From: a virus
Lineage: Duplodnaviria > Caudoviricetes
IMG/VR virus record: IMGVR_UViG_3300037067_007163
Span: 7,496 to 71,495 of that record
Length of the DNA: 64,000 bases
Strand: one strand, 5' to 3'
The position numbers were made by a program, and so were the translations under genes. Below are positions 1 to 17,013 of this stretch, piece by piece. Each line of letters starts with the position of its first letter. Position 1 is the stretch's first letter. The notes under the pieces are model-generated. The model was not told where the DNA came from, searched no databases, and was given only the letters and a program-made list of their open reading frames with translations.

Positions 1-2
1 CA

Positions 3-3000
3 AACATTTATTCTGAACAAGTTGGTGGAAATGTTAAACCTGCTTACCTTAAAATAGAAAATCCAGCAGATGGTAATAAGTTGTTGACTAGAGAAGCACA
101 ATCACTAGGACATGATGGTGTGATTAAACAACTTGATAGTGGGGAAAAAGTGTACATTGTTTTTGATTCCAATCAAATTAAGTCAGCCACTGGTAACAAG
201 GGTACATTCAATCCTAAAGATCCAATCATTACTCATTCAGCTAACACTCAAGTATGTAGTGCAGATTGTCACGTTCACAACTCAAATGGTCGTGTGCACA
301 ATGCAAAGGCAAAGCAACCACGTCGTACATTTAATAAGAAACCAGTACAACGTAAGTTAAGCAACAAGAAGTCACCTACAAGAATAGACCCCACTCGATT
401 GGCTACGTTGCGTAGAGTGTGGACTACTGACTTAAAACGTAGGTTCAAGAGCATTGATAAGGCATTGTACCAATTGTTAGTAGTAGATGATGCTTTTGGA
501 ATCAACGGCAATAAGGTATTCAATGTATTCTGTGCAACGGGAGAAGGTGGTGGAGTAGATCCAAGCTGTTCACCTAATGATAGTGGGGGTAAGTTGGAGC
601 ACTACGAGCAAACAATGCAGGGGGAGTTCTGGCTACAAGGTTCAACTGCTATATCAGCCGATGGTGACGTTGATGACATGAATCACGAAGGTCATGCTAT
701 TCAGCAGGCACAGTACGATGTGGCCAATGCTTTTGGTATAGAGCATGAGGAGGATTGGGATAAGACAAAAGAAGAGATTCATGGGAAGCTAATTGAGGAC
801 CGCCCCGAACTACAAAAGTCATTGGACTGGATTGATCAGTACGGTGCCCCATCAAACCCCGAGCAAGAAGCAGTGGTCAAACCCTTCTATGATCATCTCA
901 AAGAAGTTGGGTTGACCCCTGAGGACTGGGAAGTAGCCAACGGCAATGGTAACCAAGACTCTCGCATTTGGGCAGCGGATAAACACGACTGGGTGAGGGT
1001 GGCAGGCAACAGCATTCAAACGGTTGGTATTGATAGCTTGAAGATGAGTGAAATTGCTGATGGTCTTTGGGATGCTTATGGTGATGATGTAGAGCAACAA
1101 TCATTTGATGTTGAAGTCATAGCTAAGGACTCTGTTGGCAAGGGTAAGAATATCTACACCAAACTCTACCGCGACGTGCCCTACCATACCATCGCTGGTA
1201 GTTCTGTCAATGCTTTGCGTGATTACGTGACCAACGCTACGGAAAATTATGACGTGGAGAAAGAGGTAGAGAGGGCAGCTAAGGAGACGGATAGAAACCC
1301 CTCAGAGGCTCAGCGTAAGGCGGGTACATATAGAAAGGGCAAGGTGTGGGTACAGGGGTTAGAGGTTGCTATAGAGTCGCCTAGAGGGTCTACGAGGAGT
1401 GGTATAGGGGCTGACGGTAAGCCTTGGTCTACTACCATGCAGCACCACTATGGTTACATTAAGCTGACAGAGTCAGAAGCAGACGGAGACCACATTGACT
1501 GCTTCCTTGGTCCAAACCCTTCCTCTGATAAGGTATTCATTGTTGATCAAACAAAAGGGCCTGACTTCAAAGAGTTTGATGAACACAAGACTCTAATTGG
1601 TTGGGACAATGTAGAAGAAGCCAAGCAAGCATACCATGACAACTTCAGTGAAGGTTGGCAAGGATTTAGTGACATCACTGAGATGACAATGCAGGAGTTC
1701 AAACAGTGGCTTAAAGAAGGCGATAGCAGTAAGCCAGTAGCAAATGCCTTCTGTCCAACAGGTAGAGGTAACGGGCAAGACAACTCTTGTAGTCCATCTG
1801 GTTTGCCGTTCAATCCAGCAGAAGCAGAGAAGACAGCTGGGCGATGGAAAGATCTTTCCAAAGGGGAAGTGGTCTATCTTAGCAAAGCAATTACTGGGAA
1901 ACCAGAACGGTACTATCTGAAAGTAAAGGTTAGCAAAACCTCTGAGGGTGAAATTGAGGGTATCATACAACAACCCTATGTTTTGGATAAATACCACAAG
2001 TTTGATAAGGGGGAGATGGTTCGGTTCTTTGGGAACGAGGTGGTTCATGTTGAGAGTCGTACAGAAGCACCCAAAGTAAAAGAGTACAAAGCAGAAAAGA
2101 GTGAGATCCCAAAGGACAGCCATACTGGAATGTGGCTCTCAGCTTGGGTGATGGGACAAACGAACCAGGTCACTCCTGCTGTAGCTAAGGCACTTTCTAA
2201 ATACACCTCTGACAAACCAGTGACCCTTTACCGAGGAATTAACACAACCTCTCCGAACCTAGGTCCGACTAAGATGCCAACAAGTTGGAGCTTATCTAAA
2301 AAGTCAGCTGCTTCATTCGGTCGGGGAACACATATGCACCCTAATCCAACTGAAGGGAGGTTGCTCAGCCAGGAGTTTAAGCCTTCTGAGATACTTGTAG
2401 ATTTGAACCACCCACAGGTGAAGGCTTATCTGCATGAGCTGGAGTACGAAGGTGAAAAAGAAGTTATTGTTAAGCCCAAAGTAAGTTTCAAAAGTTCGAA
2501 AGTGACAAAACTCACTGTTAATCAGCTCACTGCAACCTCGAACCAAAAGATGGAACGAATAACAAAGTCCCACTGGTCCAACTATGCATTGAACCAAAAG
2601 CTTCTGCAGTTGGCTAAACAAGGGGGTACGTTGGTAGTAAACTCTTCTTACTTCGCTGAGTGTGAACGTGATGAGAAGGGTCATTGTTTACCATCTGGTG
2701 AAGTAGGTGATAAGTCTAACAGTGAAGAAAGCAAAACACCAGAGTCTAGTAAGGAAGAATCAAGTGCTGGTAAGTTTGACAGAGCAAAGTGGCAAGGTAG
2801 ACGAGAGGAATGGGGTAAGTTACCAGTTGGTCAAAGAGACAACTTAGCAGATGCAGAGAACAGTGTCAAGAGTAGAGTCAGTGAGTTGCTGAAGGGGGTG
2901 CCAGAAAGACCTAATACTGGTGACTTGAGCAAAGACTTAGAAACTAGGATTGGTCAGTTATCAGATCGTGTACATCCACAGGCTGCTGACCGTATGAAGA

Positions 3001-5921
3001 CTGTTGTTAGGGATTACACTAACTTGATGAATGAAGCTGGAGTAAAACCAGAACATCAACATGCACTAGCAATGGAAGCAGTGGACCACCTAGCTGCACA
3101 AGAGTCAGAGACAATGTCTCGTCAATTAGGTGATCACGGTGTAGCACACATCAAAGGTGACATTGATGTAGCAATGCAAACCTTAAATGCCTTACCTACA
3201 AAATCCACAGCACAAGATAAGTTAGCAGCATACACTGCTTGCATCTACCACGACACAGGCTACTTAACTGAGCCCAGTCGTTCTTTCTTAGATGAAGGGC
3301 ACCCACGTTGGAGTGAGCAGTACTACAACACCAATATAAAGCCTACAGTTGCTAAGGCATTGGGTGATCGTGCTGCTAACGAAGTCAGCCACATCATTCG
3401 TACTCATGATGCTACGGACATGGATTGGAACAGCGATAGTGTAGCCTCTTCTGTTCGATTGGCAGATAACCTGGCTGTGTTCCATCGTGAGAAGTTGCCG
3501 CCTGTATTTCGTTATGTCAATGGTAACATTGATGTGCTCAAAGACTTAGGTGCTGGCAAGATCGATAAAGCAACTGCGAATGAACGAATGGTTGCCAACA
3601 TTGACAAGTCTAATCTCACAGATAAGGTCAAGTCACAACTTCGATTGGGTGCTAAAGAGGTTTCAGAGTACACACCCAAGGTAACACTAGGCATGCTTGG
3701 TGGTACATTGACGGGTATCAAGTACAAAGAGGGAACAGTTGTAGCTGAGGTCAAAGAAAGCAAGAAGGCTACGGAGATCAATAAGTTGGGCGACTTTGGT
3801 CAAAATCAATTGGCAAAGTTGGCTAAGACATTTGATGCTGATCCCAAGCAGTTCCAGAAAGACTTGAACTTCACTTTCAAGGGCAAAGACGGTCGCACTC
3901 GTCTTCGCATTGAGATGCAAAAGGCAGTCGAAAACATATTGCTGAATGCTGGTGAAAGATTCCATTTTCAAACTTCACCAGAGCAAGTCAATTCTTTTCG
4001 TCAGTGGATAGCAAAGATTCTAAAGCAATATGTCTTAGATGAAGAAGTCAGTGCAGAAGATCAGTGGTTTCAACAGTACGTTGAGGAAGGATATCGTCGT
4101 GGCGCAAGTCGTGCATTCGATGACACAAGGCCAGCAGTAAAGAAGTGGTTACAATCAGAAGAAGCCAATAAGAAATTAGACTTCTATGACGGTACACGAG
4201 CAGACTTCTTACGATCCTCCTTTGCTAGACCAGTCAGTGTTGAGAAGGTTAAGCTATTGGCAGGTCGCAGCTTCACAGATCTTAAAGGCATCAGTGATCA
4301 GATGAGTGCTAAGCTCACTCGTGGTCTCACAGATGGTTTAGTACAAGGCAAGAACAGCAAGCAAATTTACAAGGACTTAGCCAAAGACGTTGGTATTAGT
4401 GAAAGCAGGGCCAGAGCTATTGCACAAACAGAGCTAACTCGTGCACATGCATCGGGCCAGATCCAGAGTTTCAAAGACTTAGGTGTAACAAAACTAGGTG
4501 TCATGGCAGAAATAGCAACAGCACAGGATGACAGAGTTTGTGAGGCTTGCAATGACTTGAATGGTGTAGTCTTAACAGTTGATGAAGCTGAAGGAATTTT
4601 ACCTGTTCATACCTCATGTCGTTGTGCTCTCATTCCAGCTAATGTCGGGGAAGATGAAGAAGACCAAGTGCGCAGCAAGTTAGGTATCGAGAAAGCCATT
4701 GATGCTGCTACCGAAGTGCTCGGGGGTAGTGACAAGACTACATGGCCTGGAGCAGATGTTAGTATCAGTAAGACAAGACCACAAGGTATTTTCAACTCAC
4801 GTGAAGTATTGTTCAACCAACAACAAGAAATCATCATTGAGCGATTAGACCAACTGATTGATTTAGCTAACAACGCCTTATCACTAAAGGAAGATGATTC
4901 TGTAGTCAACAACACAGAACCTGTTGTGGTAGAATCTACTGTTTTGTCAAATAAAATTGTAGACTTAGTAAATGATTCTGGAACTACAGTTGACAACCGT
5001 TCCTTCTTCGCAGAATGTGATCGGGACGAGAAGGGTCGCTGTCTACCTGGTGATCCTGTAGATGGTTTGAAGAAAGAGCACCCAGAGTTTGCAGAGCACA
5101 AGTTCAATTACGTGCCGAGCCTAGGAGAAACGATTGCTAGGTACGAGCCAAATGGAACGATCACTGTGACTGATACTTTCTTTGGTCATGGTAAAGAAGA
5201 CCAACGGCAGATACTGGCACATGAGGTCGGGCATGGGCAAGTAGCTAGTCTAACAACTCCAGAGCACGCTGAGGAGTATTGGAAGTTGGTTGACTCTGAT
5301 GTGTTAGGTAAGTACGACGAAGAGAAGCAACGGTTCGTTGGATTGCATGGGCAGCGTAATGCCGATGAAGTCTTGGCTGATTTGGCAGCTGACTACTACC
5401 TTGACCCTGACAAGCTGAAGGAGCGATACCCAGTTCAATATCCGATTATCAAGAAAATTCTAACTGAGAACAGGTCTTTCTTCGCTGAATGTCAGAGGGA
5501 TGAACATGGTCGTTGTTTGCCAGAGGGAAGTAGTGGTAGTAAGAGCCAATTGGCCACAAGAACATATAAACCTAGCACAGCAGAGAAACAACGTAAGGGT
5601 GAAGCAGAGCAGTTGTTACTGGCTAAGGCAATTAAGGGTGTCAATACCGATGACAATCAACCGTTTGATATAATCAAAGGAAAGAATGGCATTGAAGTCA
5701 AAACTTTAATGGATAACAACAACGATAAAATAACCGTTCACCCTGAGAGTAGAATTAGAAAAGAGAAAGAAGCAAAGAAACTAAACCTAGACATGCATAC
5801 GGTTGCAATAGATACTCGTGCTGGGCGTAAGGTATACTATTACAAGGCTGGTGTTGGTGCTTTTCGTATTTCCAGCATGCAACGGGTTTCGCTCTCCCAA
5901 CTCAAAGAAATGCTATCATGA
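3..5921 (+). CDS. Giant MuF/SPP1 gp7-like head morphogenesis polyprotein with multiple enzyme domains (5' truncated)
   Basis: Frame is open from nt 3 (NIYSEQVGGNVKPAYLKIENP...), so the true start is upstream of the window. MuF core RAIAQTELTRAH...DDRVCEACNDLNG...PVHTSCRC at ~4400-4640. Also ART-PolyVal-like end (AYLKIENP/GHDGVI/VFDSNQIKSATGN), inorganic pyrophosphatase-like (DGDHIDCFLG...FDEHK), ART (LYRG/SWS/EKEV), HD (YHDTG), zincin (HEVGH) and C-terminal PD-(D/E)xK (PFD...IEVK). Confidence 0.85.
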   Translation, partial: NIYSEQVGGNVKPAYLKIENPADGNKLLTREAQSLGHDGVIKQLDSGEKVYIVFDSNQIKSATGNKGTFNPKDPIITHSANTQVCSADCHVHNSNGRVHNAKAKQPRRTFNKKPVQRKLSNKKSPTRIDPTRLATLRRVWTTDLKRRFKSIDKALYQLLVVDDAFGINGNKVFNVFCATGEGGGVDPSCSPNDSGGKLEHYEQTMQGEFWLQGSTAISADGDVDDMNHEGHAIQQAQYDVANAFGIEHEEDWDKTKEEIHGKLIEDRPELQKSLDWIDQYGAPSNPEQEAVVKPFYDHLKEVGLTPEDWEVANGNGNQDSRIWAADKHDWVRVAGNSIQTVGIDSLKMSEIADGLWDAYGDDVEQQSFDVEVIAKDSVGKGKNIYTKLYRDVPYHTIAGSSVNALRDYVTNATENYDVEKEVERAAKETDRNPSEAQRKAGTYRKGKVWVQGLEVAIESPRGSTRSGIGADGKPWSTTMQHHYGYIKLTESEADGDHIDCFLGPNPSSDKVFIVDQTKGPDFKEFDEHKTLIGWDNVEEAKQAYHDNFSEGWQGFSDITEMTMQEFKQWLKEGDSSKPVANAFCPTGRGNGQDNSCSPSGLPFNPAEAEKTAGRWKDLSKGEVVYLSKAITGKPERYYLKVKVSKTSEGEIEGIIQQPYVLDKYHKFDKGEMVRFFGNEVVHVESRTEAPKVKEYKAEKSEIPKDSHTGMWLSAWVMGQTNQVTPAVAKALSKYTSDKPVTLYRGINTTSPNLGPTKMPTSWSLSKKSAASFGRGTHMHPNPTEGRLLSQEFKPSEILVDLNHPQVKAYLHELEYEGEKEVIVKPKVSFKSSKVTKLTVNQLTATSNQKMERITKSHWSNYALNQKLLQLAKQGGTLVVNSSYFAECERDEKGHCLPSGEVGDKSNSEESKTPESSKEESSAGKFDRAKWQGRREEWGKLPVGQRDNLADAENSVKSRVSELLKGVPERPNTGDLSKDLETRIGQLSDRVHPQAADRMKTVVRDYTNLMNEAGVKPEHQHALAMEAVDHLAAQESETMSRQLGDHGVAHIKGDIDVAMQTLNALPTKSTAQDKLAAYTACIYHDTGYLTEPSRSFLDEGHPRWSEQYYNTNIKPTVAKALGDRAANEVSHIIRTHDATDMDWNSDSVASSVRLADNLAVFHREKLPPVFRYVNGNIDVLKDLGAGKIDKATANERMVANIDKSNLTDKVKSQLRLGAKEVSEYTPKVTLGMLGGTLTGIKYKEGTVVAEVKESKKATEINKLGDFGQNQLAKLAKTFDADPKQFQKDLNFTFKGKDGRTRLRIEMQKAVENILLNAGERFHFQTSPEQVNSFRQWIAKILKQYVLDEEVSAEDQWFQQYVEEGYRRGASRAFDDTRPAVKKWLQSEEANKKLDFYDGTRADFLRSSFARPVSVEKVKLLAGRSFTDLKGISDQMSAKLTRGLTDGLVQGKNSKQIYKDLAKDVGISESRARAIAQTELTRAHASGQIQSFKDLGVTKLGVMAEIATAQDDRVCEACNDLNGVVLTVDEAEGILPVHTSCRCALIPANVGEDEEDQVRSKLGIEKAIDAATEVLGGSDKTTWPGADVSISKTRPQGIFNSREVLFNQQQEIIIERLDQLIDLANNALSLKEDDSVVNNTEPVVVESTVLSNKIVDLVNDSGTTVDNRSFFAECDRDEKGRCLPGDPVDGLKKEHPEFAEHKFNYVPSLGETIARYEPNGTITVTDTFFGHGKEDQRQILAHEVGHGQVASLTTPEHAEEYWKLVDSDVLGKYDEEKQRFVGLHGQRNADEVLADLAADYYLDPDKLKERYPVQYPIIKKILTENRSFFAECQRDEHGRCLPEGSSGSKSQLATRTYKPSTAEKQRKGEAEQLLLAKAIKGVNTDDNQPFDIIKGKNGIEVKTLMDNNNDKITVHPESRIRKEKEAKKLNLDMHTVAIDTRAGRKVYYYKAGVGAFRISSMQRVSLSQLKEMLS

Positions 5922-6043
5922 CTAAATTAGAACTGTTAGATGCAATTACGGAACTTGCTGAGGAGAAAGCAATTTTAGATGCCAAGCTAGCTTTCCTACA
6001 AAACGAGTTGGACGAAGGTAATTACGAAGAGGATCAGTCATGA
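5918..6043 (+). CDS. Small acidic protein (41 aa), candidate immunity/accessory
   Basis: Not in ORF track. MTKLELLDAITELAEEKAILDAKLAFLQNELDEGNYEEDQS, with ATGA overlaps at both ends. Confidence 0.6.
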   Translation: MTKLELLDAITELAEEKAILDAKLAFLQNELDEGNYEEDQS

Positions 6044-6366
6044 GCTATTGGCTGGAAGACGCAGACGGCAAGTATCTTGGTGACTTAGCTACCAACGTAG
6101 GAATCAACCAACTACGTGATGCTGGTAGTCCTGCACTCAAGACATTTTTAGACCAAGGGTTTGCTGATGAAGACTTAATTGAGGAAATGGTCAATGAGTC
6201 TCTCAACAATCCAAAGTTATCTTACATTGCAGCAATGTTTGACGAAGTGAAAGCACCTGTCTATGTAACAGACGGTTGCGGTCAAGCAGATGAAGTTGAG
6301 AACAAATCAAAACCAATTCTGGCTGAACAACTCAGTCAAATAATCAATCGAAAGGAAGTACAATGA
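6040..6366 (+). CDS. Acidic hypothetical protein, candidate immunity protein for the MuF C-terminal nuclease
   Basis: 108 aa, D/E-rich, translationally coupled downstream of the toxin-like domain; the role is inferred from position. Confidence 0.5.
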   Translation: MSYWLEDADGKYLGDLATNVGINQLRDAGSPALKTFLDQGFADEDLIEEMVNESLNNPKLSYIAAMFDEVKAPVYVTDGCGQADEVENKSKPILAEQLSQIINRKEVQ

Positions 6367-6842
6367 CAAAGTTAAAAGTACAAGAGAAGAATACCCAAGT
6401 GTTAAGCCTATTGCAAGCAGCAGTGAATGGTGAAACTACTTCACGCAACCTATACTTTGCTCGTGCTGTGTTTTGGGATAGCATTGGATTTCACAAGCTG
6501 GCAGAATACTATGAGAAGCAAAGCCAAGAGGATCATTGTCAGCTAAGTGCTGACCGCATGGCTTTCTTAGGAGAGCAGCCAGCCTTTAGCCCTTCTCCAG
6601 TACAGTCATTGACAGAAGAGTCTATTGCAGAACAGTACCTAATTGATTTGCAAGTGGAAGTGGCTTTGGCTGAGAATTACACCGAGAGCATTAAGACTGC
6701 TGAGACTCTTGGTGATTACATCACTGCTCAAATTTGGAAGGGTGTACTACAATCAACCCAAGAGCACTGTGATTATCTTCAACAGGAATTGAAGAAAATT
6801 GAACTTGTTGGTGAGCAGAATTACCTTACTGCATGGGTGTAA
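6363..6842 (+). CDS. bfr: Bacterioferritin-like (ferritin superfamily) protein
   Basis: Aligns by eye with Bfr along its whole length: NGETTSRNLY, GFHKL, DRMAFLGEQP, DLQVE, GDYIT, EHCDYLQQELKKIELVGEQNYL. Confidence 0.85.
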   Translation: MTKLKVQEKNTQVLSLLQAAVNGETTSRNLYFARAVFWDSIGFHKLAEYYEKQSQEDHCQLSADRMAFLGEQPAFSPSPVQSLTEESIAEQYLIDLQVEVALAENYTESIKTAETLGDYITAQIWKGVLQSTQEHCDYLQQELKKIELVGEQNYLTAWV

Positions 6843-6875
6843 ATTTCAATTGTTTCCTACGAAGAAGAATCAGTT

Positions 6876-7160
6876 ATGATTGCAGGAGCAAGTACCTTGG
6901 AAACGCCAAAAGTGAGACTGTCACCAATCCAACAAAGGATGCTACAGGTATTGAGTGATGGCTTACCTCATAGCAGGGAAGCAATGCTAGAGTGCCTTCA
7001 GGATGACCAGTGCAGTCAGACAGGTCATTTGGCTCACTTGACTGCCATTCGTAAGGTATTACGCCCAAAAGGTGAGGATGTGCTTTGTGAGTACCGACAG
7101 CGGCGTCCTTTCTACAGACACGTTCGTCTTTTACCATCTGCATATGACGGGTATCAGTGA
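6876..7160 (+). CDS. Hypothetical protein, possible winged-helix
   Basis: LSPIQQRMLQVLSDG...HLTAIRKVLR pattern; coupled to the next gene. Confidence 0.45.
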   Translation: MIAGASTLETPKVRLSPIQQRMLQVLSDGLPHSREAMLECLQDDQCSQTGHLAHLTAIRKVLRPKGEDVLCEYRQRRPFYRHVRLLPSAYDGYQ

Positions 7161-7576
7161 TGAAAAGAACTTATCAGCAAATCTGCTCCATGACTGAAGA
7201 ACAGCTTAGAGCACTGTCAAAGAAGAGCAGACGAACTGCTATTCGGGTATTGTACAGTAGGGCAGTAAGTAAGCATAACAAAGTTACCTACATTCAGACA
7301 CTGCAATTTTCTAATCAACCTAAGATAAGCAGGCACATTCGCAAAAAGCGTAAACACAGCCGCAAGTACGAAGACTATTTGAAATCAAAGCATTGGAAAT
7401 CCTTCCGAAAGCAGGTCATCAAAGAATCGGGAGACCAATGTGAGATGTGTTTAATCGTTCTTCATCGGGGGTTACAAGTGCATCATCTCCACTACCTGAC
7501 TTTGGGCAATGAATCTCGTGGGGACGTAAAAGTGCTTTGTAGAACCTGCCATAGCAACCTGCATGCTAAATACTGA
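7157..7576 (+). CDS. HNH endonuclease
   Basis: CEMC...LQVHHLHY...LCRTCH motifs. Confidence 0.85.
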   Translation: MMKRTYQQICSMTEEQLRALSKKSRRTAIRVLYSRAVSKHNKVTYIQTLQFSNQPKISRHIRKKRKHSRKYEDYLKSKHWKSFRKQVIKESGDQCEMCLIVLHRGLQVHHLHYLTLGNESRGDVKVLCRTCHSNLHAKY

Positions 7577-7666
7577 TGGGTCGATTATCTAAAGTATTTA
7601 GATTCTGTCGTTCTGACAACTTTTCTACTTTACTCTTCTCAAGAGATAATTTAAGTTGTCAGGTGT

Positions 7667-9718
7667 ATGGAGCACCTGACAGTCAATATCTCTGGTAAAG
7701 TCAGGCAGGTCAACGAGGGTGGTAAGTCATTCCTCGTTGCCCCGCTTTCTTTAATTGTCCCTGGAGTCCTATCTGGATCCAAGGGGCCATTGCTCTACGA
7801 GCCTTCTGAGATAGCTAAGAATCATCAACAGTGGAATGGTATGCCATTGTTGGTTTATCATCCCCACGACCCCATTACTAATCAGCCTCTATCAGCCCAA
7901 GATCCTGATCAAGGGCCTTCTATCATAGAGAAACAAGGGGTGGGTGAAGTTCGCAATACCCATGTAAAACATGGAAAGTTGCGAGCAGAAGGTTGGTTTG
8001 ACGTAGAGAAGACCACGAAGGTTGACCCTCGTATCTTGGCGGATCTTAAAGCCAACCGTCCTTGTGAACTATCGACAGGTTTGTTCACGGACAACGAGGA
8101 TACTCCGGGCAACTTTCGTGGTCGTCCTTACACCCAAAAAGCAAGGAACTATCGCGCAGACCACGTGGCCATACTGCCCGACCAAATTGGAGCCTGCAGT
8201 ATTAAAGATGGATGTGGAGTTTTGGTAAACAAAGCATCCTCTTCACTGCAAGAGAAGATTCATCTGCTAGCAAATTCTTCTTTGGTAATCAATCCTGATT
8301 GGGTTGAAGATCATGACATTTGGGAAAAGGCAAAGAATGCAGCTGATAAGAGTGACTATGACGATGACAGTTACTATGCTGTTGTAACCAGCATCTACAA
8401 GAATATGGGTGGTGGCATTAAGGAGAGCAAGATGACCAAGAATGAAAAACTACACATCCTTGCTAACGAGAACCCTAACCGTGACGAGTTGGGTAGGTTT
8501 GCTAGTGGTTCCGGTGGCGGTAGTAAGGGTAGTGGCAAGGGTAGTGCAAAGGTTCACGGTGCAGCCAAGGGTGGTCATCAGAGTTGGGCCAATGACGTTC
8601 ATACAATAAATCAAGGAACTCATAACATGTCTTCTACCCTTCAAGATAAGTTGGCCGGTATTCTGGGTTCAGTTGAGAATGCTGATGTAAAAGAAGACAA
8701 CAGTGTCACTAAGTTGAAGCAAGCTGATGGCCCTAAAACAACACTTGCACCCGTTGGATCTAGTGAACAGGAAACAGAACTAAGACTGCGAGATGGTGGC
8801 GAAGTTGGGTCAGATGAAATAGATACAGAAGACCATGACATGATTGAGAAAGGTGCTGAGTCACCGTTGAAGGCTGATGCTACAGCACTAGGAGCAGAAG
8901 AGATCAAACCGAAACCATTTAAGAAACCCGAGCAGAGTAATGCTCAAACACATAACCAAGAAGAAGGAGGCCACACGATGGCTACTGTGACTTTGAACGC
9001 GGAAGAGCGAGAGGCTGTCGTAAACGGTCTCATTGAAGGTGAGTGCTGCTTCGAGGAGAGTGAGCGTGCTGTGCTCAACTCCTTGAGTGATCGCACTCTT
9101 GCACGTCTAACCTTGAATGCTAAGGAAATGCCGAAGTTCATTCAAGACAAGATTGATGCCAAGAAGGCAAAGGAAGATTCTGCCATGGAAGAAGCAGACT
9201 CTGAGGATGAAGACGAAGAAGAGGAAGTCGAAAACGAAGATCAGAAGACTGAGGAAAAGGATCGAGCTGGTCTTGGTGTACGTGCTGGTAAGGGCACTGG
9301 CAAGAACGAATCTCAAGCCCAAGGCAATGTGAAGCCTTGCGGTGAGTTGAATCCGAAGATGCCTACGGATAATCAGCTCAGTGCTGACGATCGTCAATTC
9401 TTGGCCATTGGCCGTAAGGTAGTCTCTGATCGTCGATCCGACATGATCAAGACCATTACTGCCAACAGTCGCAATCCTTTTGATAAGAAGGAACTTGCCA
9501 GCATGGAATTTAACCAATTGGAAAAGCTTAGCCAATTGGCTGCTGTGGAAAGTGAAGCAGTTGTTCCTTCCTTCACTCTCAATCGCTTCAGTGGGTTCAT
9601 GGGTGCTGCTGCTGGCGTTGGCCAGGTTAACAATGACAGTGGTGTGGACGATGACGTCTTGGAAACTCCAACAATCAACTACAGCGAGATTGCTTCGAAG
9701 GGAATTCAAAAACGATAG
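7667..9718 (+). CDS. DUF2213-type prohead protease/scaffold fusion
   Basis: N-terminal ELSTG...NYRADHVAILPDQIGAC domain, long acidic scaffold-like C-terminus, located just before decoration and capsid genes. Confidence 0.75.
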   Translation: MEHLTVNISGKVRQVNEGGKSFLVAPLSLIVPGVLSGSKGPLLYEPSEIAKNHQQWNGMPLLVYHPHDPITNQPLSAQDPDQGPSIIEKQGVGEVRNTHVKHGKLRAEGWFDVEKTTKVDPRILADLKANRPCELSTGLFTDNEDTPGNFRGRPYTQKARNYRADHVAILPDQIGACSIKDGCGVLVNKASSSLQEKIHLLANSSLVINPDWVEDHDIWEKAKNAADKSDYDDDSYYAVVTSIYKNMGGGIKESKMTKNEKLHILANENPNRDELGRFASGSGGGSKGSGKGSAKVHGAAKGGHQSWANDVHTINQGTHNMSSTLQDKLAGILGSVENADVKEDNSVTKLKQADGPKTTLAPVGSSEQETELRLRDGGEVGSDEIDTEDHDMIEKGAESPLKADATALGAEEIKPKPFKKPEQSNAQTHNQEEGGHTMATVTLNAEEREAVVNGLIEGECCFEESERAVLNSLSDRTLARLTLNAKEMPKFIQDKIDAKKAKEDSAMEEADSEDEDEEEEVENEDQKTEEKDRAGLGVRAGKGTGKNESQAQGNVKPCGELNPKMPTDNQLSADDRQFLAIGRKVVSDRRSDMIKTITANSRNPFDKKELASMEFNQLEKLSQLAAVESEAVVPSFTLNRFSGFMGAAAGVGQVNNDSGVDDDVLETPTINYSEIASKGIQKR

Positions 9719-9787
9719 CAATTGATTGGTTTCAATTGCTTTGTAACTTAAACTTGAAACTGAATTTTTGATAAGGGAGAATTTGAG

Positions 9788-10273
9788 ATGGCAAAAGGCA
9801 ACGAAATCATTGTGAGCGCAGACCCCAAGGGTGTATTCCTTGAGGGGACTGTGTATGGTACGCCGAAGCCTGGCACCGTGATGCAGGTTCGAGCAACAGC
9901 CTTGATTGGTGGGCGTCCTGTGTGGGAAGCCTATAACGTGACTGGTGATGGATACCCTGGCATTATTGCTGTATTGCTGCCTGACCAATTGCAAGGCAGC
10001 TTAGCCACTACTGCTTATGTCACTGGTACCCACTGCTTCCTGTATTGCCCGATCGCTGGTGAAGAGCTGAATATGCTCGTAGCTGACGTTTCTGGTACGG
10101 GCACTAGTGGTAGTGAAGCTAAGGCTATTGGTGACATCTTGATGGTAGATGATACCACTGGCAAGTTGGTGGATGACAGTTCTGGCTTGAGGAAGCCTTT
10201 TGTACTGTTGGAAACTCAAGCAGAGCCTATCTCAGCAGATGCTCTGTTGCACTGCATGTACACTGGTCAATAG
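9788..10273 (+). CDS. Head decoration/cement protein (putative)
   Basis: 161 aa between scaffold and MCP; strong SD (GGGAG). Confidence 0.6.
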   Translation: MAKGNEIIVSADPKGVFLEGTVYGTPKPGTVMQVRATALIGGRPVWEAYNVTGDGYPGIIAVLLPDQLQGSLATTAYVTGTHCFLYCPIAGEELNMLVADVSGTGTSGSEAKAIGDILMVDDTTGKLVDDSSGLRKPFVLLETQAEPISADALLHCMYTGQ

Positions 10274-10351
10274 CCAGTTAACAATCAAACAAGACGATTT
10301 TTGAAATTACCTTGGCTCCGGCCAAATTAACTAAGAGAAGGAGAATTCTGA

Positions 10352-11611
10352 ATGTTCACAGATTTTATCGAGAATGGACGAGCGACCGGAGCCGTCGCAA
10401 CCCACATCATGGGTGGCAATGTTCCTGGTGGCTATGACAAGGGTTATGATCGCCCTTACATCAATCGCAAGGGTCAACGGGCTGTCACGATCAACACTGG
10501 TAAGATGGTGTTGAACGAGAAAGGCACGTATGTTCCTGAGAAGCGTGAAGTGTTGATCAGCAACCTGTTGGAACAGGGTATTTACAATCCTGTGTTCAAT
10601 GCCACTTCTCTTCGCAAGGAAGAGTGGATTAGCTTGGACCAAGTAGTGCTGCGTGAGGCTCGTCTTCGCCTTCGGGCATGGGCTGACCTCTCCGCAGCGA
10701 GTAGCTACGGCGGTTTCAACGGCATGGCTAAGAGCATGCTGGAGCATGAGACCATGAGTGATCCCGGCGAAGCCTTGGTCGACATGGACGGTTTGACCCA
10801 AGGTCATACGGATAGCCCGACGTTCCAACTGCAGGGTATTCCGTTGCCGATTACCCACTCGGACTTCTGGTACTCTTCGCGTCGGTTGGCGGAGTCTCGT
10901 AATACGGGTACTCCGTTGGATACGACGATGGGTGAGGCTGCTGGTCGTCGTGTTGCGGAAATGATTGAGCAGACCCTCATTGGCACCACTACGGGCATGA
11001 CCTATGGTGGCACGATGACTCAGTATGGTGGTTACGGTTCCGGTCGTAATGGTGACCGTACCTCGACAGTCTATGGGTACACCAATTACCCTGACCGCCA
11101 CACGTTTGCTAACACCACCGCCCCGACCAGCACGAACTGGTCCCCGGAATGGACGCTGAAAGACGTGTTGGCCATGCGTGACCTGTTGCGCAACGGCCGA
11201 TTCTATGGTCCTTACATGCTGTATCACAGCACGGATTGGGATCAGTACCTTGACAGTGATTACTACGCTGTTCGTACCTCTGGTGCCTTGGCTCCTACCC
11301 AGACGTTGCGTGAGCGTTTGATGAAGATTGGCGACGTTCAAGATGTTCGACGTTTGGACTTCTTGGGATCGTCAACCAATCCGTTCAACCTCCTGTTGGT
11401 CCAGATGACTCCCGACGTTTGTCGGGCGATCAATGGTTTGGACCTCACGACGGTTCAGTGGGAATCCGTTGGTGGCATGCGATTGAATTTTAAAGTGATG
11501 GCAATCCAGGTACCACAAATCCGTTCGACTCAAGCGGGCCGTTGTGGGATTTGTCACGCAACCGTAACAGCAGGTACGGATAGCACCTATCCGACTGGCA
11601 CCAATGCCTAA
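10352..11611 (+). CDS. Major capsid protein, HK97 fold, encapsulin/linocin-M18-like
   Basis: LRKEEWISLDQVV, PLPITHSDF, SRRLAESRNTGTPLDTTMGEAAGRRVAEMIE resemble family-1 encapsulin/linocin-like capsids; AAGGAG SD; position in module. Confidence 0.85.
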   Translation: MFTDFIENGRATGAVATHIMGGNVPGGYDKGYDRPYINRKGQRAVTINTGKMVLNEKGTYVPEKREVLISNLLEQGIYNPVFNATSLRKEEWISLDQVVLREARLRLRAWADLSAASSYGGFNGMAKSMLEHETMSDPGEALVDMDGLTQGHTDSPTFQLQGIPLPITHSDFWYSSRRLAESRNTGTPLDTTMGEAAGRRVAEMIEQTLIGTTTGMTYGGTMTQYGGYGSGRNGDRTSTVYGYTNYPDRHTFANTTAPTSTNWSPEWTLKDVLAMRDLLRNGRFYGPYMLYHSTDWDQYLDSDYYAVRTSGALAPTQTLRERLMKIGDVQDVRRLDFLGSSTNPFNLLLVQMTPDVCRAINGLDLTTVQWESVGGMRLNFKVMAIQVPQIRSTQAGRCGICHATVTAGTDSTYPTGTNA

Positions 11612-11667
11612 GTAAGGGCATGATTAAATGTAAACTGGTCACTTGTTGAGTGATTAGTCTAGTATCT

Positions 11668-11704
11668 CCCTCTGCCACTTGACGCTGCAACAGGTGGCAG
11701 AGGG
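11668..11704 (+). terminator. 11-bp stem-loop after MCP
   Basis: ccctctgccac ... gtggcagaggg inverted repeat; no clear U-tract. Confidence 0.45.
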
Positions 11705-11757
11705 TTACGGTAAACATAAGCAGCAATACCTTTGACACTGATTGGGGAGCGAATATC

Positions 11758-12153
11758 ATGGCGAAGTACAGAATCTTGCGTGGTTGTCATGCAGAAGGTT
11801 TCTATCCTGCTGGTCATCCGCAGGCTGGTAATCCCATTGTCTATGAACCTGGTGAGGTAATCGAGACAAACAACTGCTTGCTGAAGCACAATAGCCGTCC
11901 TGGCACGCAAGGTGCCTTGGGCGATAAGTTTCAACTGGTAGACGATGATCGTATTCAACCGACGGAAAAGATTAAAGTCAAGCCAGTTGAAGAACATGTT
12001 CAAGAACCCAGTCAGCCTGAGGATGGTCTCAGTGGTATGAGCGTGCCAGAATTGAAGGAATTGGCTCGAGGTGATAGCATTGAGCTGGGCCAAGCCAAAA
12101 CGAAGGCTGACATTCTCAAGGTCATCCGCGACGCCTATGCTGCCACTGCGTAG
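11758..12153 (+). CDS. Hypothetical protein with C-terminal Rho-N/HeH-like domain
   Basis: LSGMSVPELKELA...KTKADILKVI; common immediately after phage MCPs. Confidence 0.6.
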   Translation: MAKYRILRGCHAEGFYPAGHPQAGNPIVYEPGEVIETNNCLLKHNSRPGTQGALGDKFQLVDDDRIQPTEKIKVKPVEEHVQEPSQPEDGLSGMSVPELKELARGDSIELGQAKTKADILKVIRDAYAATA

Positions 12154-12188
12154 TCGTTGCTCTAAGGGTAGAGAGGAGCGACTCACTG

Positions 12189-12608
12189 ATGGCCAGAACA
12201 ACTTCTATCGCAGTGCAAAGAGTTTTGGGTGGTCACTATGACACTCAAAACAAACCAGCACTAGATCCATTCATCAAGACTGCAAATATCTTGGTGGGTC
12301 AAGTTGCTCTCCAAGTTGGAACCCCGGATGCTGCCACACTGGCCGAGATCGAGTGCTACCTCTCGGCACACTTCTATGCTCATGCAGATCAGATCACCCA
12401 AACAAAGAGTACGGGTGGGGCCAGTGGCAGCTTCCAGGGTACTACGGCAATGGCTTTGAATGGCACACAATACGGTCAAACAGCAATGCTGTTAGACTCT
12501 AGTGGTTATCTTGCCAAGCGTAGCAAGGAAGTAGAAACAGGACAACGACGTGTTGCCACTTGCACATGGTTGGGTGAAGACCCTGACGACCAAACTCAGT
12601 ATCAATAA
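12189..12608 (+). CDS. Head-tail adaptor (gp15-like)
   Basis: IECYLSAHF...TQYGQ motif, size and position. Confidence 0.7.
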   Translation: MARTTSIAVQRVLGGHYDTQNKPALDPFIKTANILVGQVALQVGTPDAATLAEIECYLSAHFYAHADQITQTKSTGGASGSFQGTTAMALNGTQYGQTAMLLDSSGYLAKRSKEVETGQRRVATCTWLGEDPDDQTQYQ

Positions 12609-12973
12609 TGCCACCCATTGAATCCCAAAATCTGAATCAGCACGCAGTTCTTTGGGCAAGGGGTGACTATGACACCTATGGTCGGTACACAGTGTCTTCT
12701 CCCATAGAGATTAACGTGCGGTGGGAAGAGGGTCAAACCCAAAGCAGTGGTGCACAAGATACTGTTATTGCTGTAAGTGTTACACTGTTTGTAGATCGAG
12801 TAATCACACCTGGTAGTTTGGTATGGAAAGGAAAGTTGAAAGACTTACCTGCTTCTCCAACAAACATTAAAGAGGTGGAGAACTACGATGAAGTGCCTGA
12901 CCTGAAGGGTAGAAGGTTTCGTCGAAGGGTGACTTGCAAGCGATACGAAGAACAACTACCAACGGTTGTGTAA
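12608..12973 (+). CDS. Head closure/stopper protein (putative)
   Basis: Size, synteny after the adaptor, beta-rich. Confidence 0.6.
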   Translation: MPPIESQNLNQHAVLWARGDYDTYGRYTVSSPIEINVRWEEGQTQSSGAQDTVIAVSVTLFVDRVITPGSLVWKGKLKDLPASPTNIKEVENYDEVPDLKGRRFRRRVTCKRYEEQLPTVV

Positions 12974-12975
12974 TC

Positions 12976-13674
12976 ATGGGAATTATCTTAGCAATACTAA
13001 GCGTGATTGGTTCCGTTCTTGGTGCCATTGCTAGCTTTGTTGCACAAGTGTTTAGTTGGGCTGTCAAGACATTTCCTTGGTACGTGTGGGTAATACTAAT
13101 TGGTGTTTGTATTGCCTTCAGCTATGGAATAAAGTTAGGAGCCAATTGGTCTGGCAGTGGAACGAATTTTGGTTGCTCTTGTCGAGACTTCATGTGCCGT
13201 AGACAACGAGATCCTAGACCACCTCATGTGACAACAGAGAGCGTTGTTTCCGTGACCAATGGTGTTACGTTGTCTTGCAAGGCAGGATTGAGAGGCAGAC
13301 GAACACACACCGTTACTTTGATTGATGTTGCTGCTCCAGAGAGTGGAAGTGTTTTAGCTGAGCAAAGTAGAGCTAATCTGGAAAAGATTGCTGGCAAAAC
13401 CATTAGAGTAGAAACGAATCGAACTGGCATTTTTAGATCAGAAGCTCAGCCTAGCCTGCCACAGCAGGAAGAAGAATCAACGATGACTGTGGAAGCATCC
13501 GAGGAAGTTGAAGCATTAGGACCAGTTACTGGTGTTGTGTATGGAGAAACAGGCAGTTGTTTACAAGTGGAACAACTCTATGCTGGGATGGTTAAGTGTT
13601 TACCCAGTGCTTCAAAGGAATGGAAGAGAGTGGAAGCAACAGCGAAACGTCAAAAGTTAGGGGTGTGGAAATGA
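12976..13674 (+). CDS. Membrane-anchored thermonuclease (SNase)-fold protein with degenerate active site
   Basis: N-terminal hydrophobic segments; VVSVTNGVTL, VTLIDVAAPE and EATAKRQKLGVWK match the SNase layout. Confidence 0.65.
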   Translation: MGIILAILSVIGSVLGAIASFVAQVFSWAVKTFPWYVWVILIGVCIAFSYGIKLGANWSGSGTNFGCSCRDFMCRRQRDPRPPHVTTESVVSVTNGVTLSCKAGLRGRRTHTVTLIDVAAPESGSVLAEQSRANLEKIAGKTIRVETNRTGIFRSEAQPSLPQQEEESTMTVEASEEVEALGPVTGVVYGETGSCLQVEQLYAGMVKCLPSASKEWKRVEATAKRQKLGVWK

Positions 13675-13829
13675 CTGCAAAATGGTATTGGATTTGTGGT
13701 ATTTCAGCATACGTCGCACCGGCAATTATTATGTTGGTGTACATCTTGGCCAACAGTTTAGACCGTCCAGTAATTGGCAGTCTATTGTGGCCCTTGCGAC
13801 TAATCAAGATGCTTTTAGGGGAAGGTTAG
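13671..13829 (+). CDS. Small membrane protein
   Basis: ATG overlaps the previous stop; hydrophobic 52 aa. Confidence 0.55.
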   Translation: MTAKWYWICGISAYVAPAIIMLVYILANSLDRPVIGSLLWPLRLIKMLLGEG

Positions 13830-13833
13830 TAAC

Positions 13834-14211
13834 ATGGTACAGATGATTGGTTGGGGAGTAATCGTAGCAGCAGTTTTGATACTGCTCTATTACGTTTGGA
13901 CAACGTGGTTCAAAACGGCTAATGTCGGAACCAGCACGGTGGGTAAGTTTATCACTGGAGCATTGGAATCTGCCCAGCTGACAACTAACCTAGGGTATGT
14001 CGAATTGTTGAGCAAGGTAGATGTGGTAGAAGCTTCTGAGGAAGCAGTGAAGGCTTGCGATGTGCTTTCAAACGTCTTGTGGCAGGGAGCAATGGCTGCA
14101 TGGAAGAAAGCTCAAACGGAATCTACAACTACAACCACCACAACAACAGAAGTTAAGACTGCTAAAATCACAACTGTAGATGGTACTGTTGTGGAGGTGC
14201 CTGTTCAATGA
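13834..14211 (+). CDS. Membrane protein with Thr-rich tail
   Basis: N-terminal TM segment; STTTTTTTTE run. Confidence 0.6.
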   Translation: MVQMIGWGVIVAAVLILLYYVWTTWFKTANVGTSTVGKFITGALESAQLTTNLGYVELLSKVDVVEASEEAVKACDVLSNVLWQGAMAAWKKAQTESTTTTTTTTEVKTAKITTVDGTVVEVPVQ

Positions 14212-14588
14212 AGAAAGCATTACCTGTTGCTGGGTTACTGCTATTGATGTTGTTGGGGGTGGGTTTAGTTGCTAGACCAGACCTAGTAGCTATGCCTGGA
14301 GTGAATGCCCCTAATACTGCAGTAATTATTCATGAGTCTGGAGTCAATAAACCGTTGTCTTTTGCAATGGTAGAAGTGCTAGCCAAAGCACCCTCTCTAG
14401 GCATTAACGTGTGGGACCAAGGAATCTTAGGCAAGAATAAACAACCCTCAAAAGAAGCTCAACCCTTCTTAGAAGCAGCAAAGGGTAAAGACCTGCCTGT
14501 GTTGGTGCTACGATGGCCTGGTGGTTCTTACACAGTTAAGCCTTGTCCTACAACGCTGGTTGACTTGAAGAAGGAGGTTGGACAATGA
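14208..14588 (+). CDS. Secreted/membrane-anchored hypothetical protein
   Basis: MKK plus hydrophobic signal-like N-terminus. Confidence 0.6.
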   Translation: MKKALPVAGLLLLMLLGVGLVARPDLVAMPGVNAPNTAVIIHESGVNKPLSFAMVEVLAKAPSLGINVWDQGILGKNKQPSKEAQPFLEAAKGKDLPVLVLRWPGGSYTVKPCPTTLVDLKKEVGQ

Positions 14589-15349
14589 TTCTAATCAATG
14601 ACGACAACTGGCAAGAAGTGGTTCAAGAATCTCAGAATCAAGGATTCTCAGTAGGTGCACTACCCCGCCAAACAGGCATTGGGGAAATGTCTTGCGCAAC
14701 AGTGTTTGCAGAGCAGGTTCCTATTATTCCAGAGAGTGAATGGAAACCTCGTATTGCAGAAATGACTGCCAGTGGACTGTTTATTGGACAACGGTGGAAG
14801 TCTGACACAAAGTTAGACTACCAGAATGGGTTAGGATTCTGTTGGGCTAAGTCATTAGCACAAGCATGCATGGCTGTACGTGCTGCTCAAAATCAACCTT
14901 TTGTACAGTTGATGGGAGAATCTCTAGCAGAGTGCGTTGGCTACCGAAATCGTGGTTACTACTTGGATCGAGCGTTAGAGTATGCCAACAATCGAGGCAT
15001 TGCTAGCATTGCCACAGTGCCACACTTGAAAATCACTCAAGGTGAATGGAATCCTCAATATGCCGAAGAACGGCAAAGCTACATGCCCTTAGAGTGGTGG
15101 GACTTGGGGGGCAAGGAAGTTTGGGCAGAAACAATTACTGCTCTCTTGATGGGGTATGGCTGTTACGTTGGTTATGATTGGTGGGGTCATGCTGTATTCC
15201 TCGACATGCTCAGGGTCAATGCTAAAGGTCAAATTGAAGTGCATACCCCCAATACCCACGGACAAGGCAACGATGCTTGGTTGGCAGGTAGCAAGGCTAT
15301 TCCCAGCATGGGATCCTTTGTACTACGTGGAATGAACTTAGCAATTTAG
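14585..15349 (+). CDS. Papain-like (C1-type) cysteine peptidase
   Basis: YQNGLGFCW (oxyanion Q and catalytic C), WWGHAV (His), downstream PNTHG (Asn). Confidence 0.7.
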   Translation: MILINDDNWQEVVQESQNQGFSVGALPRQTGIGEMSCATVFAEQVPIIPESEWKPRIAEMTASGLFIGQRWKSDTKLDYQNGLGFCWAKSLAQACMAVRAAQNQPFVQLMGESLAECVGYRNRGYYLDRALEYANNRGIASIATVPHLKITQGEWNPQYAEERQSYMPLEWWDLGGKEVWAETITALLMGYGCYVGYDWWGHAVFLDMLRVNAKGQIEVHTPNTHGQGNDAWLAGSKAIPSMGSFVLRGMNLAI

Positions 15350-15358
15350 GAAATAGTT

Positions 15359-15541
15359 ATGTTGCAATGCATTTGTGACATGTATAAATTACATAGTGCC
15401 CATGGTGGAATGCCACTTCCACCAGAAGTGTTGTTGATTGGTGCACTATTGTTAATTCTGGTGCTTATTTCTTGTGGAGCATTGGGATGTTATGGATTAT
15501 GGTGGTTGTTTAAGTTTGCTGTTCAAATGGCCACGAATTAA
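15359..15541 (+). CDS. Small membrane protein
   Basis: Long hydrophobic segment; SD-like AGGAA upstream. Confidence 0.45.
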   Translation: MLQCICDMYKLHSAHGGMPLPPEVLLIGALLLILVLISCGALGCYGLWWLFKFAVQMATN

Positions 15542-15584
15542 AGTTTGTGTTTTATGCTGATTCAATTCAGCAGAAAGCGAGGAT

Positions 15585-16085
15585 GTGATGAAAAACGTAG
15601 TTCCTATTCTATGCTGTGTGTGCTTGTTAATTGGTGGTAGCTTGCTAACTGCTCCAGCAAGTACGACGAGCACTTATCTGTTGCCGTTGACGTATACGGT
15701 GGCCACTGCAGACATTCCTCAAGACATACAGCAACCAGCAGTTGTTATTCCTGCCAAACCGGCAATTGTCGATAGTAAGTTGGTAATTTCTCCTCAATAC
15801 GTTGATCAGTCAAAAAATCCTGACAAGATCAATTTGGAGATCTCTATAGCAGACCAGCCTTGTGCAAATGGCGGTTGTGCTAATGGAGTGTGTCCTATGA
15901 GACGATCTGTCAGTACAGTGAACACTGAGACAACGACTACGTCTACTGTAGCTGTTTCAGAAGAAAGGGAATTGCATCTGCTAGGACGTGTTGCAGTTAG
16001 GGCTCAAGGTGTTGTTGGTAGGGTTTGTAACCTATTAGGTTGCGAACGACGTCAAGAAAGACGGGCTACCCGACGTGGGGGTTGA
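15585..16085 (+). CDS. Secreted Cys-containing hypothetical protein
   Basis: Signal peptide; CANGGCANGVCP; Arg-rich C-terminus. Confidence 0.55.
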   Translation: MMKNVVPILCCVCLLIGGSLLTAPASTTSTYLLPLTYTVATADIPQDIQQPAVVIPAKPAIVDSKLVISPQYVDQSKNPDKINLEISIADQPCANGGCANGVCPMRRSVSTVNTETTTTSTVAVSEERELHLLGRVAVRAQGVVGRVCNLLGCERRQERRATRRGG

Positions 16086-16116
16086 TAGCCTTTGCTGCAT
16101 GGGGCAGTCCCCCTAA

Positions 16117-16154
16117 CTACCCAGCGGTTGTTGTCCCCGATGACCGCTGGGTAG
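16117..16154 (+). terminator. 12-bp stem-loop
   Basis: ctacccagcggt ... accgctgggtag in an intergenic gap. Confidence 0.45.
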
Positions 16155-16176
16155 ATTCTACTTACAGCAACCAATT

Positions 16177-16973: not shown

Positions 16974-17013
16974 TGTTTAGGTTGATCCAGCAAGGCGAAA
17001 CGGGGAAGAAATA

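Follow-up and report, generated by a model that had tools for sequence, protein, structure and literature searches.

MuF (gp7) proteins are minor head proteins of phages, and enzymes fused to them are regarded as injected effectors (PMC5512222, PMC5576092). In the MuF polymorphic toxins, described in temperate phages (Jamet et al. 2017, BMC Biol; PMC5576092), an N-terminal MuF domain carries one C-terminal toxic enzyme, which may be of the ADP-ribosyltransferase (ART) type. The phage-type polyvalent proteins (Iyer, Burroughs, Anand, de Souza and Aravind 2017, J Bacteriol; PMC5512222) join many unrelated enzyme domains, 2 to 15, in one polypeptide; they are encoded among head genes, contain InPase, ART, zincin (MPTase-like) and MuF domains, and are predicted to be packaged and injected. 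Here we describe a protein, P0002, that shares features with both groups. Most of its gene lies at the start of a 64,000-nucleotide stretch of DNA (the window), bases 7496-71495 of IMG/VR record IMGVR_UViG_3300037067_007163, a linear, uncultured sequence of 71,495 bp whose completeness is estimated at 82% (CheckV). We consider it probable, at roughly three chances in four, that P0002 is a polyvalent protein of phage type built on a MuF carrier, which would be packaged and injected as a multi-effector payload.

Like the polyvalent proteins, P0002 combines several unrelated domains in a single frame of 2,441 residues, and head genes adjoin its gene. It also has short header tags between its modules, and cargo between an N-terminal segment (N-segment) and the core of its MuF domain; neither is described in the parts of the polyvalent-protein survey on which we draw (PMC5512222). 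Like the MuF toxins, it associates MuF with putatively toxic enzymes, ART-type ones included. Its layout is different, however: instead of an N-terminal MuF followed by a single toxin, the MuF domain is internal and split, with the core at residues 1786-2066 of 2,441, and about ten modules are distributed on both sides of it and within the split. Whereas MuF toxins were described in temperate phages, no tyrosine integrase (PF00589) was found in the 82%-complete record, and whereas polymorphic toxins are generally paired with immunity proteins, no immunity gene is recognisable for P0002. Another polyvalent protein, phi24B gp47 (2,811 residues), is a virion component by proteomics and invisible in the reconstruction, and is therefore presumed to lie inside the capsid (bioRxiv 10.64898/2026.04.10.717836); its domains (LPD1, LPD5, LPD38, MuF-C metallopeptidase) are unlike those of P0002. 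T4 Alt, the T4 internal proteins, P1 DarB and the N4 virion RNA polymerase are likewise loaded into the head and injected with the DNA (as cited in PMC5512222), as separate proteins or with one or two activities each, against the many modules of P0002. The protein class is already known; the recurrent splitting of MuF by cargo and the header tags, each marked by a pair of cysteines, appear undescribed in the literature, and a literature search on the tag motifs found no relevant paper.

Results

A single frame of 2,441 residues

The initial annotation, made from the letters of the window, had reported an open reading frame (ORF) of more than 1970 residues. The frame at window 3-5921 on the plus strand is indeed unbroken. 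It is open at its 5' end and extends upstream to an ATG at genome position 6091 (window -1404, that is 1,404 nt 5' of the window) preceded by GAGGGA, which gives the full length of 2,441 residues; residue n starts at window position 3n-1407. The domain positions proposed by that annotation were all reproduced (Table 1). It had missed the 469 N-terminal residues outside the window, which comprise a HELGH zincin, module M2 and the first half of an ART-PolyVal domain, as well as the eight tags and the recurrence of the MuF split in other phages.

The MuF carrier is split by cargo

The MuF core of P0002 scored well above the family cut-offs (PF04233, 56.6 bits for a cut-off of 29.6, 5e-15; TIGR01641, 61.8 bits for 39.65, 7e-17; phrog_758, 1.2e-36). 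Its residues 1788-2066 are 43% identical to residues 70-343 of P0009, a relative of 1,547 residues with an unsplit MuF domain. The N-segment, at P0002 597-636, matches residues 7-46 of the same protein (BLASTP E 2e-5), and its best PHROG is phrog_758, positions 20-58, the head-morphogenesis family that the core also matches. In P0009 the two MuF parts are 23 residues apart; in P0002 about 1,140-1,150 residues separate them. The claim of a MuF domain split by about 1150 residues was thus borne out, with both parts of P0002 matching adjacent parts of P0009. Hardycor1, a cultured halovirus, encodes an annotated MuF protein with the same N-segment some 37 residues ahead of the core. A tblastn search of phages with the N-segment gave no match.

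How common such splits are was estimated on an unbiased sample of IMG/VR relatives of the MuF core, collected irrespective of tags and length and consisting of the best 80 of at least 470; the counts that follow hold for that sample. The N-segment was present in 77 of 81 core-bearing ORFs. Among the 74 distinct proteins having both parts, the gap was at most 60 residues in 61, and ranged from 174 to 1,254 residues in 12. In a sample selected by the presence of tags, 17 of 20 were split, with a maximum of 3,708 residues in P0010, a protein of 4,059 residues. The usual layout of the clade, an N-segment of the form DPTR..LR..F....DAFGL followed directly by the core, is replaced in P0002 by a variant one, and P0002 still belongs to the clade. 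The split is genuine. Because the two parts are contiguous in P0009, Hardycor1 and most relatives, and because the split recurs, the N-segment and the core are two linked parts of one carrier, and the linker between them is a recurrent place of cargo insertion. Long cargo ahead of the N-segment is rarer than linker cargo: one protein of the unbiased sample (L145) has its N-segment more than 500 residues into the chain, as do P0002 and its orthologue P0003, described below.

Two relatives, P0003 (residues ~2240-2607) and P0008, contain an intein in the MuF core, at a conserved HPNC/RCA site. The P0003 insert consists of Hint domains and a DUF559/Vsr-like endonuclease. No intein interrupts the MuF core in the window.

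Identification of the modules

We regard the ART-PolyVal, InPase, MuF and Hjc-like nuclease assignments as strong. The full ART-PolyVal module matched PF18760 with 96 bits (E 4e-27); its in-window part alone, which the initial annotation had recognised as an ART-PolyVal-like end, gave 3.6e-10. The domain read there as pyrophosphatase-like is an InPase (PF18823, 169.7 bits, E 3.8e-50), and it resembles residues 636-762 of a solved portal protein, PDB 9b41_L (E 2e-30). Both InPase and ART-PolyVal are Pfam families defined on polyvalent proteins, and in Cellulophaga phages the annotation of proteins with an InPase domain is that of virion structural proteins.

The C-terminal module M8 had been proposed to be a PD-(D/E)xK nuclease, and this reading held. 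Forty homologues were found, and a 28-sequence alignment was fed to AlphaFold2 (AF2), which gave a predicted local distance difference test (pLDDT) of at least 95 over M8. The model is closest by VIA to the Holliday-junction resolvase Hjc (1gef_E, Z 10.7, root mean square deviation 2.5 Å, 100 of 114 residues) and to the SPARDA nuclease domain (Z 10.6), with several restriction enzymes, RecU and PrfA also listed; Foldseek returned 1ob8_A (E 9e-4). At the catalytic positions D2358 and E2367-V-K2369, the 28 sequences show no variation in E and V, while D and K are each retained in 90% of them or more. A profile search of PDB sequences with M8 found nothing relevant.

Module M7, with its HEVGH motif, is a predicted zincin, an assignment of moderate strength that agrees with the HExxH zincin of the initial annotation. 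The AF2 model reached a pLDDT of 85-93 across the catalytic core. Foldseek matched it to abylysin and selecase (probability 0.99), and VIA to the fungal zinc peptidase 1ge6 (Z 7.5), selecase (Z 6.6, 25% identity), HtpX (Z 6.3) and abylysin (Z 6.1). In Pfam, Peptidase_M48 was found below its cut-off. The E of NADEVLADL is a candidate third ligand. The other HExxH module, M1, lies upstream of the window, with HELGH at P0002 150, Reprolysin- and ATLF-like matches below the Pfam cut-off, and a candidate third ligand in the E of SSEMFAESV. Neither M1 nor M7 reaches any Pfam cut-off.

Module M5b was proposed as an ART of the R-S-E type, and we keep this as a putative assignment of moderate strength. 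In favour of it are the motifs, which occur in the expected order (YRG 1212-1214, SWS near 1230, E1287-x-E1289), YRG and ExE being invariant in a three-member family with S-W-S/T between them, and a profile comparison. When the family profile was aligned by hhalign with the profile of an ADPrib_exo_Tox-like module from other tagged proteins, the probability was 80% (P 1.4e-5), over 50 columns covering the R and S motifs only. ART-PolyVal came second with 12%, and five unrelated control profiles gave 0.5% or less. However, M5b has no Pfam match, and its fold is unconfirmed because structure prediction failed. A word-indexed protein search with M5 was empty, and the ESM Atlas gave a weak lead only (viral hypothetical proteins, DUF4765).

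The module preceding the MuF core resembles HD hydrolases, as had been proposed. Residues H1514, H1518, H1552-D1553, H1604-D1605 and D1624 are invariant across P0002, P0003 and the portal fusion P0004, and this resemblance stands; formal family membership is weakened, as the PF01966 score is below the cut-off, and the HD assignment, drawn from the protein sequence, is best called weak.

The rest of the cargo yielded little. For M4a, Pfam and PHROGs contained nothing and the ESM Atlas nothing usable; it was otherwise found solely in P0003, where it is located inside the InPase domain. M8, M5, M4a and M2 match no Pfam family, PHROGs gave nothing usable for the seven modules without assignment, and tblastn searches of phages with M7+M8 and with M1+M2 found no match. 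A kinship of M2 with the first module of P0003 was considered and rejected: the BLAST similarity was due to the tags on either side, and once these were removed phmmer gave no match.

Cys-pair header tags

Eight short tags containing a pair of cysteines lie at module boundaries of P0002. Five are of type A, with the pattern N-x-F-C-[PA]-T-G-x-G-G-G-x-D-x-S-C, and three of type B, N-x-S-[FY]-F-A-E-C-x-R-D-E-x-G-x-C-L-P. The third position before the first Cys is a fixed one, occupied by Asn in this lineage and by Arg in 52% of 194 distinct tag contexts. In the AF2 model, tag B3 has a low confidence (pLDDT ~60) and contains two isolated beta bridges. The portal gene of the same phage holds one more type A copy, the sixth. 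The six type A copies vary at synonymous positions; therefore it is the peptide, and not the DNA, that is conserved. For the same reason, we rejected the idea that the tags are recombination sites or repeats that arose recently in the DNA.

In IMG/VR, at least 118 stretches matched a degenerate DNA pattern written for one variant of tag A. The same pattern occurred in 5 stretches, all metagenome-assembled, among 185,579 prokaryote species genomes (one genome each); tag A appears largely absent from sequenced prokaryote genomes. A MuF core was present in 25 of the 156 tag-bearing ORFs listed, and a Pfam scan of 56 others revealed 17 portals, 11 Peptidase_S78 prohead proteases, 1 capsid protein and 8 ORFs with ART domains. 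Homologues of M8 that stand alone (150-220 residues) start with a leader and a tag, either of the Cys type or a Cys-free form, QPRDxxGRF/W.

A different motif, K-[LI]-x-[IL]-L-A-N, was found in three copies in stop-free six-frame contexts of the genome, one at the N-terminus of P0002, before the first tag, and two in a DUF2213 protein encoded downstream (window 8255-8290 and 8447-8530). The second of these is followed by NPNRDELGRFA and a Gly/Ser run, a Cys-free relative of tag B. As a proof of a cleavage signal the motif was rejected, since by a rough estimate the loose pattern is about equally frequent by chance over six frames; its placement alone is suggestive.

Cassettes move between proteins and within folds

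One close relative was found, IMGVR_UViG_3300014204_000254 (L002). Its orthologue of P0002, the protein P0003 (3,057 residues, L002:5213-14383), has the 12-residue leader in common with P0002, and is 84% identical over the HD and MuF modules and 77% over the last tag and M8. The remaining modules are different or reordered. In P0003 a cassette made of tag A and M4a interrupts InPase between the equivalents of P0002 987 and 992, such that Pfam reports two InPase stretches. P0003 contains 11 tags and no HExxH motif.

The portal gene upstream of the P0002 gene contains a comparable cassette (L001:3764-4500), consisting of a type A tag, NVFCSTGQGGGIDPSCS, from residue 191 and a module of ~85 residues. 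It is placed between portal regions that are adjacent in relatives, both of which can be aligned with the Sf11 portal, a solved structure. The relative's portal (L002:2546-4738), 78% identical, lacks the cassette and has ~35 unrelated residues in its place.

Two further arrangements were seen. P0004 (1,348 residues) is a portal to which type B tags join the same HD-like module (46% identity) and one more module; the portal of one phage therefore carries the same cargo as the MuF protein of another. After the giant gene of the relative (L002:14761-15591), a separate gene encodes 276 residues made up of an ADPrib_exo_Tox-like ART module together with a leader and a type A tag; from this composition, its product is a predicted stand-alone tagged cargo protein.

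Genome setting

Upstream of the P0002 gene, and separated from it by two small ORFs, is the portal gene (799 residues, genome 3209-5608; phrog_146, 1.4e-50; PF06381). Directly downstream is a gene for a ferritin-like protein (window 6363-6842, PF00210, 1.5e-18). The DUF2213 gene starts 1.7 kb downstream of the P0002 gene and encodes 683 residues (window 7667-9718), with the DUF2213 domain N-terminal, that are scaffold- or protease-like; further downstream, a capsid-like protein of 419 residues matches DUF6260 and phrog_771. A small ORF for an HNH endonuclease (window 7157-7576; several PHROGs, down to 9e-10) lies between the P0002 gene and the scaffold and capsid genes. The ferritin-like protein and this endonuclease apart, the small downstream ORFs have no family matches. 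Comparison of window 1-20000 with 50,697 phage records by megablast matched nothing: there is no close relative at the DNA level among cultured phages.

Table 1. Features of the P0002 gene inside the window
Feature	Window position	Strand	P0002 residues	Basis or remark
In-window part of polyvalent MuF protein P0002	3..5921	+	470-2441 and stop	open frame
ART-PolyVal ADP-ribosyltransferase, C-terminal half	3..215	+	whole domain ~432-540	Pfam PF18760
MuF N-segment (RIDPTRLATLRR...DDAFGI), detached from core	366..521	+	591-642	BLASTP, PHROG
Type A tag A4 (NVFCATGEGGGVDPSCSP)	522..572	+		motif
Module M4a	573..1280	+	660-895	without assignable fold or function
InPase (family I inorganic pyrophosphatase-like, polyvalent-protein type)	1305..1715	+	904-1040	PF18823
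Type A tag A5 (NAFCPTGRGNGQDNSCSP)	1743..1793	+		motif
Module M5a, small domain	1794..2012	+	1067-1139	no family match; low-confidence AF2 model
Module M5b, probable R-S-ExE ADP-ribosyltransferase	2013..2555	+	~1140-1320	motifs and profile comparison only
Type B tag B1 (NSSYFAECERDEKGHCLP)	2640..2693	+		motif
HD-like module	2694..3950	+	1367-1785	Pfam HD stretch 3210-3476; no tag before MuF core
MuF core, SPP1 gp7 family head morphogenesis domain	3951..4793	+	1786-2066	PF04233, TIGR01641, phrog_758
Type B tag B2 (NRSFFAECDRDEKGRCLP)	4995..5048	+		motif
Module M7, predicted small zincin metallopeptidase	5049..5468	+	2152-2291 (HEVGH 2209-2213)	AF2 model, fold matches
Type B tag B3 (NRSFFAECQRDEHGRCLP)	5469..5522	+		motif
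Module M8, Hjc-like PD-(D/E)xK nuclease	5523..5918	+	2310-2441	AF2 model, VIA, conserved residues

Discussion

A capsid-loaded, multi-effector payload, as the initial annotation had proposed, is the best-supported explanation of P0002. The head-gene context, the MuF domain, the Pfam families typical of polyvalent proteins and the tags in portal and protease ORFs all support it, and packaging is what we infer from them. That the protein would be located inside the capsid is suggested by the presence of tag A in portal, protease and capsid ORFs and of InPase in the portal 9b41_L, and also by the annotation of the Cellulophaga InPase proteins and the virion proteomics of phi24B mentioned above. 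The amount of cargo had been said to exceed by far that of typical MuF toxins. Among MuF fusions P0002 is indeed large, yet it stays inside the span of 2-15 domains published for polyvalent proteins (PMC5512222), and relatives of 3,057 and 4,059 residues exist.

We propose that the N-segment (~50 residues) and the core (~280 residues) form a constant carrier, which would bind the portal and put a few copies of P0002 inside the procapsid, by analogy with SPP1 gp7. Cargo would be added to this carrier at three permissive places: ahead of the N-segment (the zincin M1, M2 and ART-PolyVal), in the flexible linker that joins the N-segment to the core (M4a and InPase, the second ART and the HD-like hydrolase), and after the core (the zincin M7 and the Hjc-like nuclease M8), each cassette being headed by a short conserved Cys-pair tag. 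At infection, P0002 would exit together with the DNA and take effect in the host without delay. Its presumed actions are to ADP-ribosylate host proteins, to hydrolyse pyrophosphate or signalling nucleotides, to degrade proteins and to cut DNA, the targets of the modules being presumed ones as well. In the survey of polyvalent proteins, InPase was proposed to remove pyrophosphate or nucleotides induced by the infection, and zincins to process either the chain itself or proteins of the host (PMC5512222).

Several observations weigh against such a payload. In nearly all cases M8 is joined to a portal or MuF protein or encoded together with one, which would also fit a role in DNA packaging in place of host attack. 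The HD-like module and the second ART are two of the six named enzymes, and their support is weak or moderate: PF01966 reached 17.9-19.6 bits, under the Pfam cut-off of 22, while being the sole HD-like match in the genome, and HD received no support from sequence profile searches of the PDB or from PHROGs; M5 had 2 relatives among 1.84 billion representative proteins (full HMMER search), and its AF2 model, built on a 3-sequence alignment, had a mean pLDDT of 41. M2 (P0002 256-394), M4a and M5a are without assignable fold. Finally, no immunity or antidote gene was recognised beside the P0002 gene.

Other explanations of the locus start from the same observations. It is hardly credible that the long frame is spurious, whether through chimeric assembly of the metagenome or through several genes being read as one: apart from the nature of the record, an uncultured linear IMG/VR contig estimated 82% complete, nothing points to it, and it is contradicted by 7,323 nt without a stop, by the 3,057-residue orthologue on a separate contig, which shares the leader and the C-terminal module and is 84% identical over HD and MuF, and by further giant relatives of 1,345-4,059 residues from several sources. 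It is also improbable, if less so, that some or all modules serve head assembly or DNA packaging and not host attack. M8 would then clear branched DNA at the portal, and InPase and HD would handle nucleotides or pyrophosphate from the packaging vertex. There is a parallel in T4, where endonuclease VII works in association with gp20, and the points in favour concern M8: its nearest structures are Holliday-junction resolvases (Hjc, Z 10.7, with RecU and PrfA listed), its family is fused to MuF (PF04233) or portal proteins (PF06381, PF04860) or stands alone with a head tag, and it is the one cargo module with the same terminal position, at 77% identity, in P0002 and in the reshuffled P0003. However, MuF-bound cargo would be inside the capsid, whereas DNA is processed during packaging outside the portal; ARTs and zincins have no known role in assembly; and module content varies widely among close relatives, which fits arms-race effectors and not assembly enzymes.

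A refinement of the payload explanation is that P0002 is a true polyprotein, in which the tags are cleavage or recognition sites and a head protease, most likely the DUF2213 protein, cuts the chain inside the procapsid. The internal proteins of T4 offer a parallel, with capsid-targeting sequences that are cleaved by gp21; more generally, T4 cargo carries a short N-terminal address peptide that is removed by the prohead protease. That peptide has no sequence resemblance to the tags of P0002. All the tags are at module boundaries, with the fixed Asn or Arg three residues before the first Cys; stand-alone proteins of the M8 family (150-220 residues) start with leader and tag; tags are present in Peptidase_S78 fusion proteins; and K-L-x-I-L-A-N is found at the N-terminus of P0002 and twice in the DUF2213 protein, once followed by the tag-like NPNRDELGRFA. 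Yet the portal tag A lies within a conserved fold and a tag of P0003 within InPase, where a cut would sever an essential fold; inserted cassettes are tagged at their N-terminal edge only; DUF2213 is not known to have protease activity; and the zincins of P0002 itself cannot be the general reader of the tags, a role for which we rejected them as P0003 has 11 tags and no HExxH. A real contender, cleavage at the tags nevertheless falls short of even odds in our view. More tentatively still, the header-tagged cassettes may belong to a general, mobile construction kit for the capsid interior. A tag with its enzyme module could be dropped in frame into any head-interior protein, even within folds, the landing sites being the MuF N-segment/core linker, the portal loop and the InPase loop; the tag would be a signal read as a cargo mark by the assembly or maturation machinery, and FCPTGxGGGxDxSC and FFAECxRDExGxC might fold as small hairpins closed, through the Cys pairs, by a disulfide or a shared metal ion.

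How an infection goes in its first minutes is decided by proteins that enter with the phage DNA, and few of them are known outside model phages. The organisation proposed for P0002 suggests a rule for finding cargo, namely that anything between a MuF N-segment and its core, or after a header tag, is a candidate cargo module. P0002 also brings in new families as candidate counter-defence or takeover enzymes: an Hjc-like nuclease linked with portal and MuF proteins, and an ART-like module that is very rare. As 174-1,254 residues separate N-segment and core in 12 of the 74 relatives that have both parts (sample of the best 80 of at least 470), the MuF linker probably tolerates inserts, which makes it a likely place to put engineered cargo. 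Should the tags turn out to be address or processing signals, head cargo could be predicted from them in many uncultured phages, and perhaps also loaded with their help.

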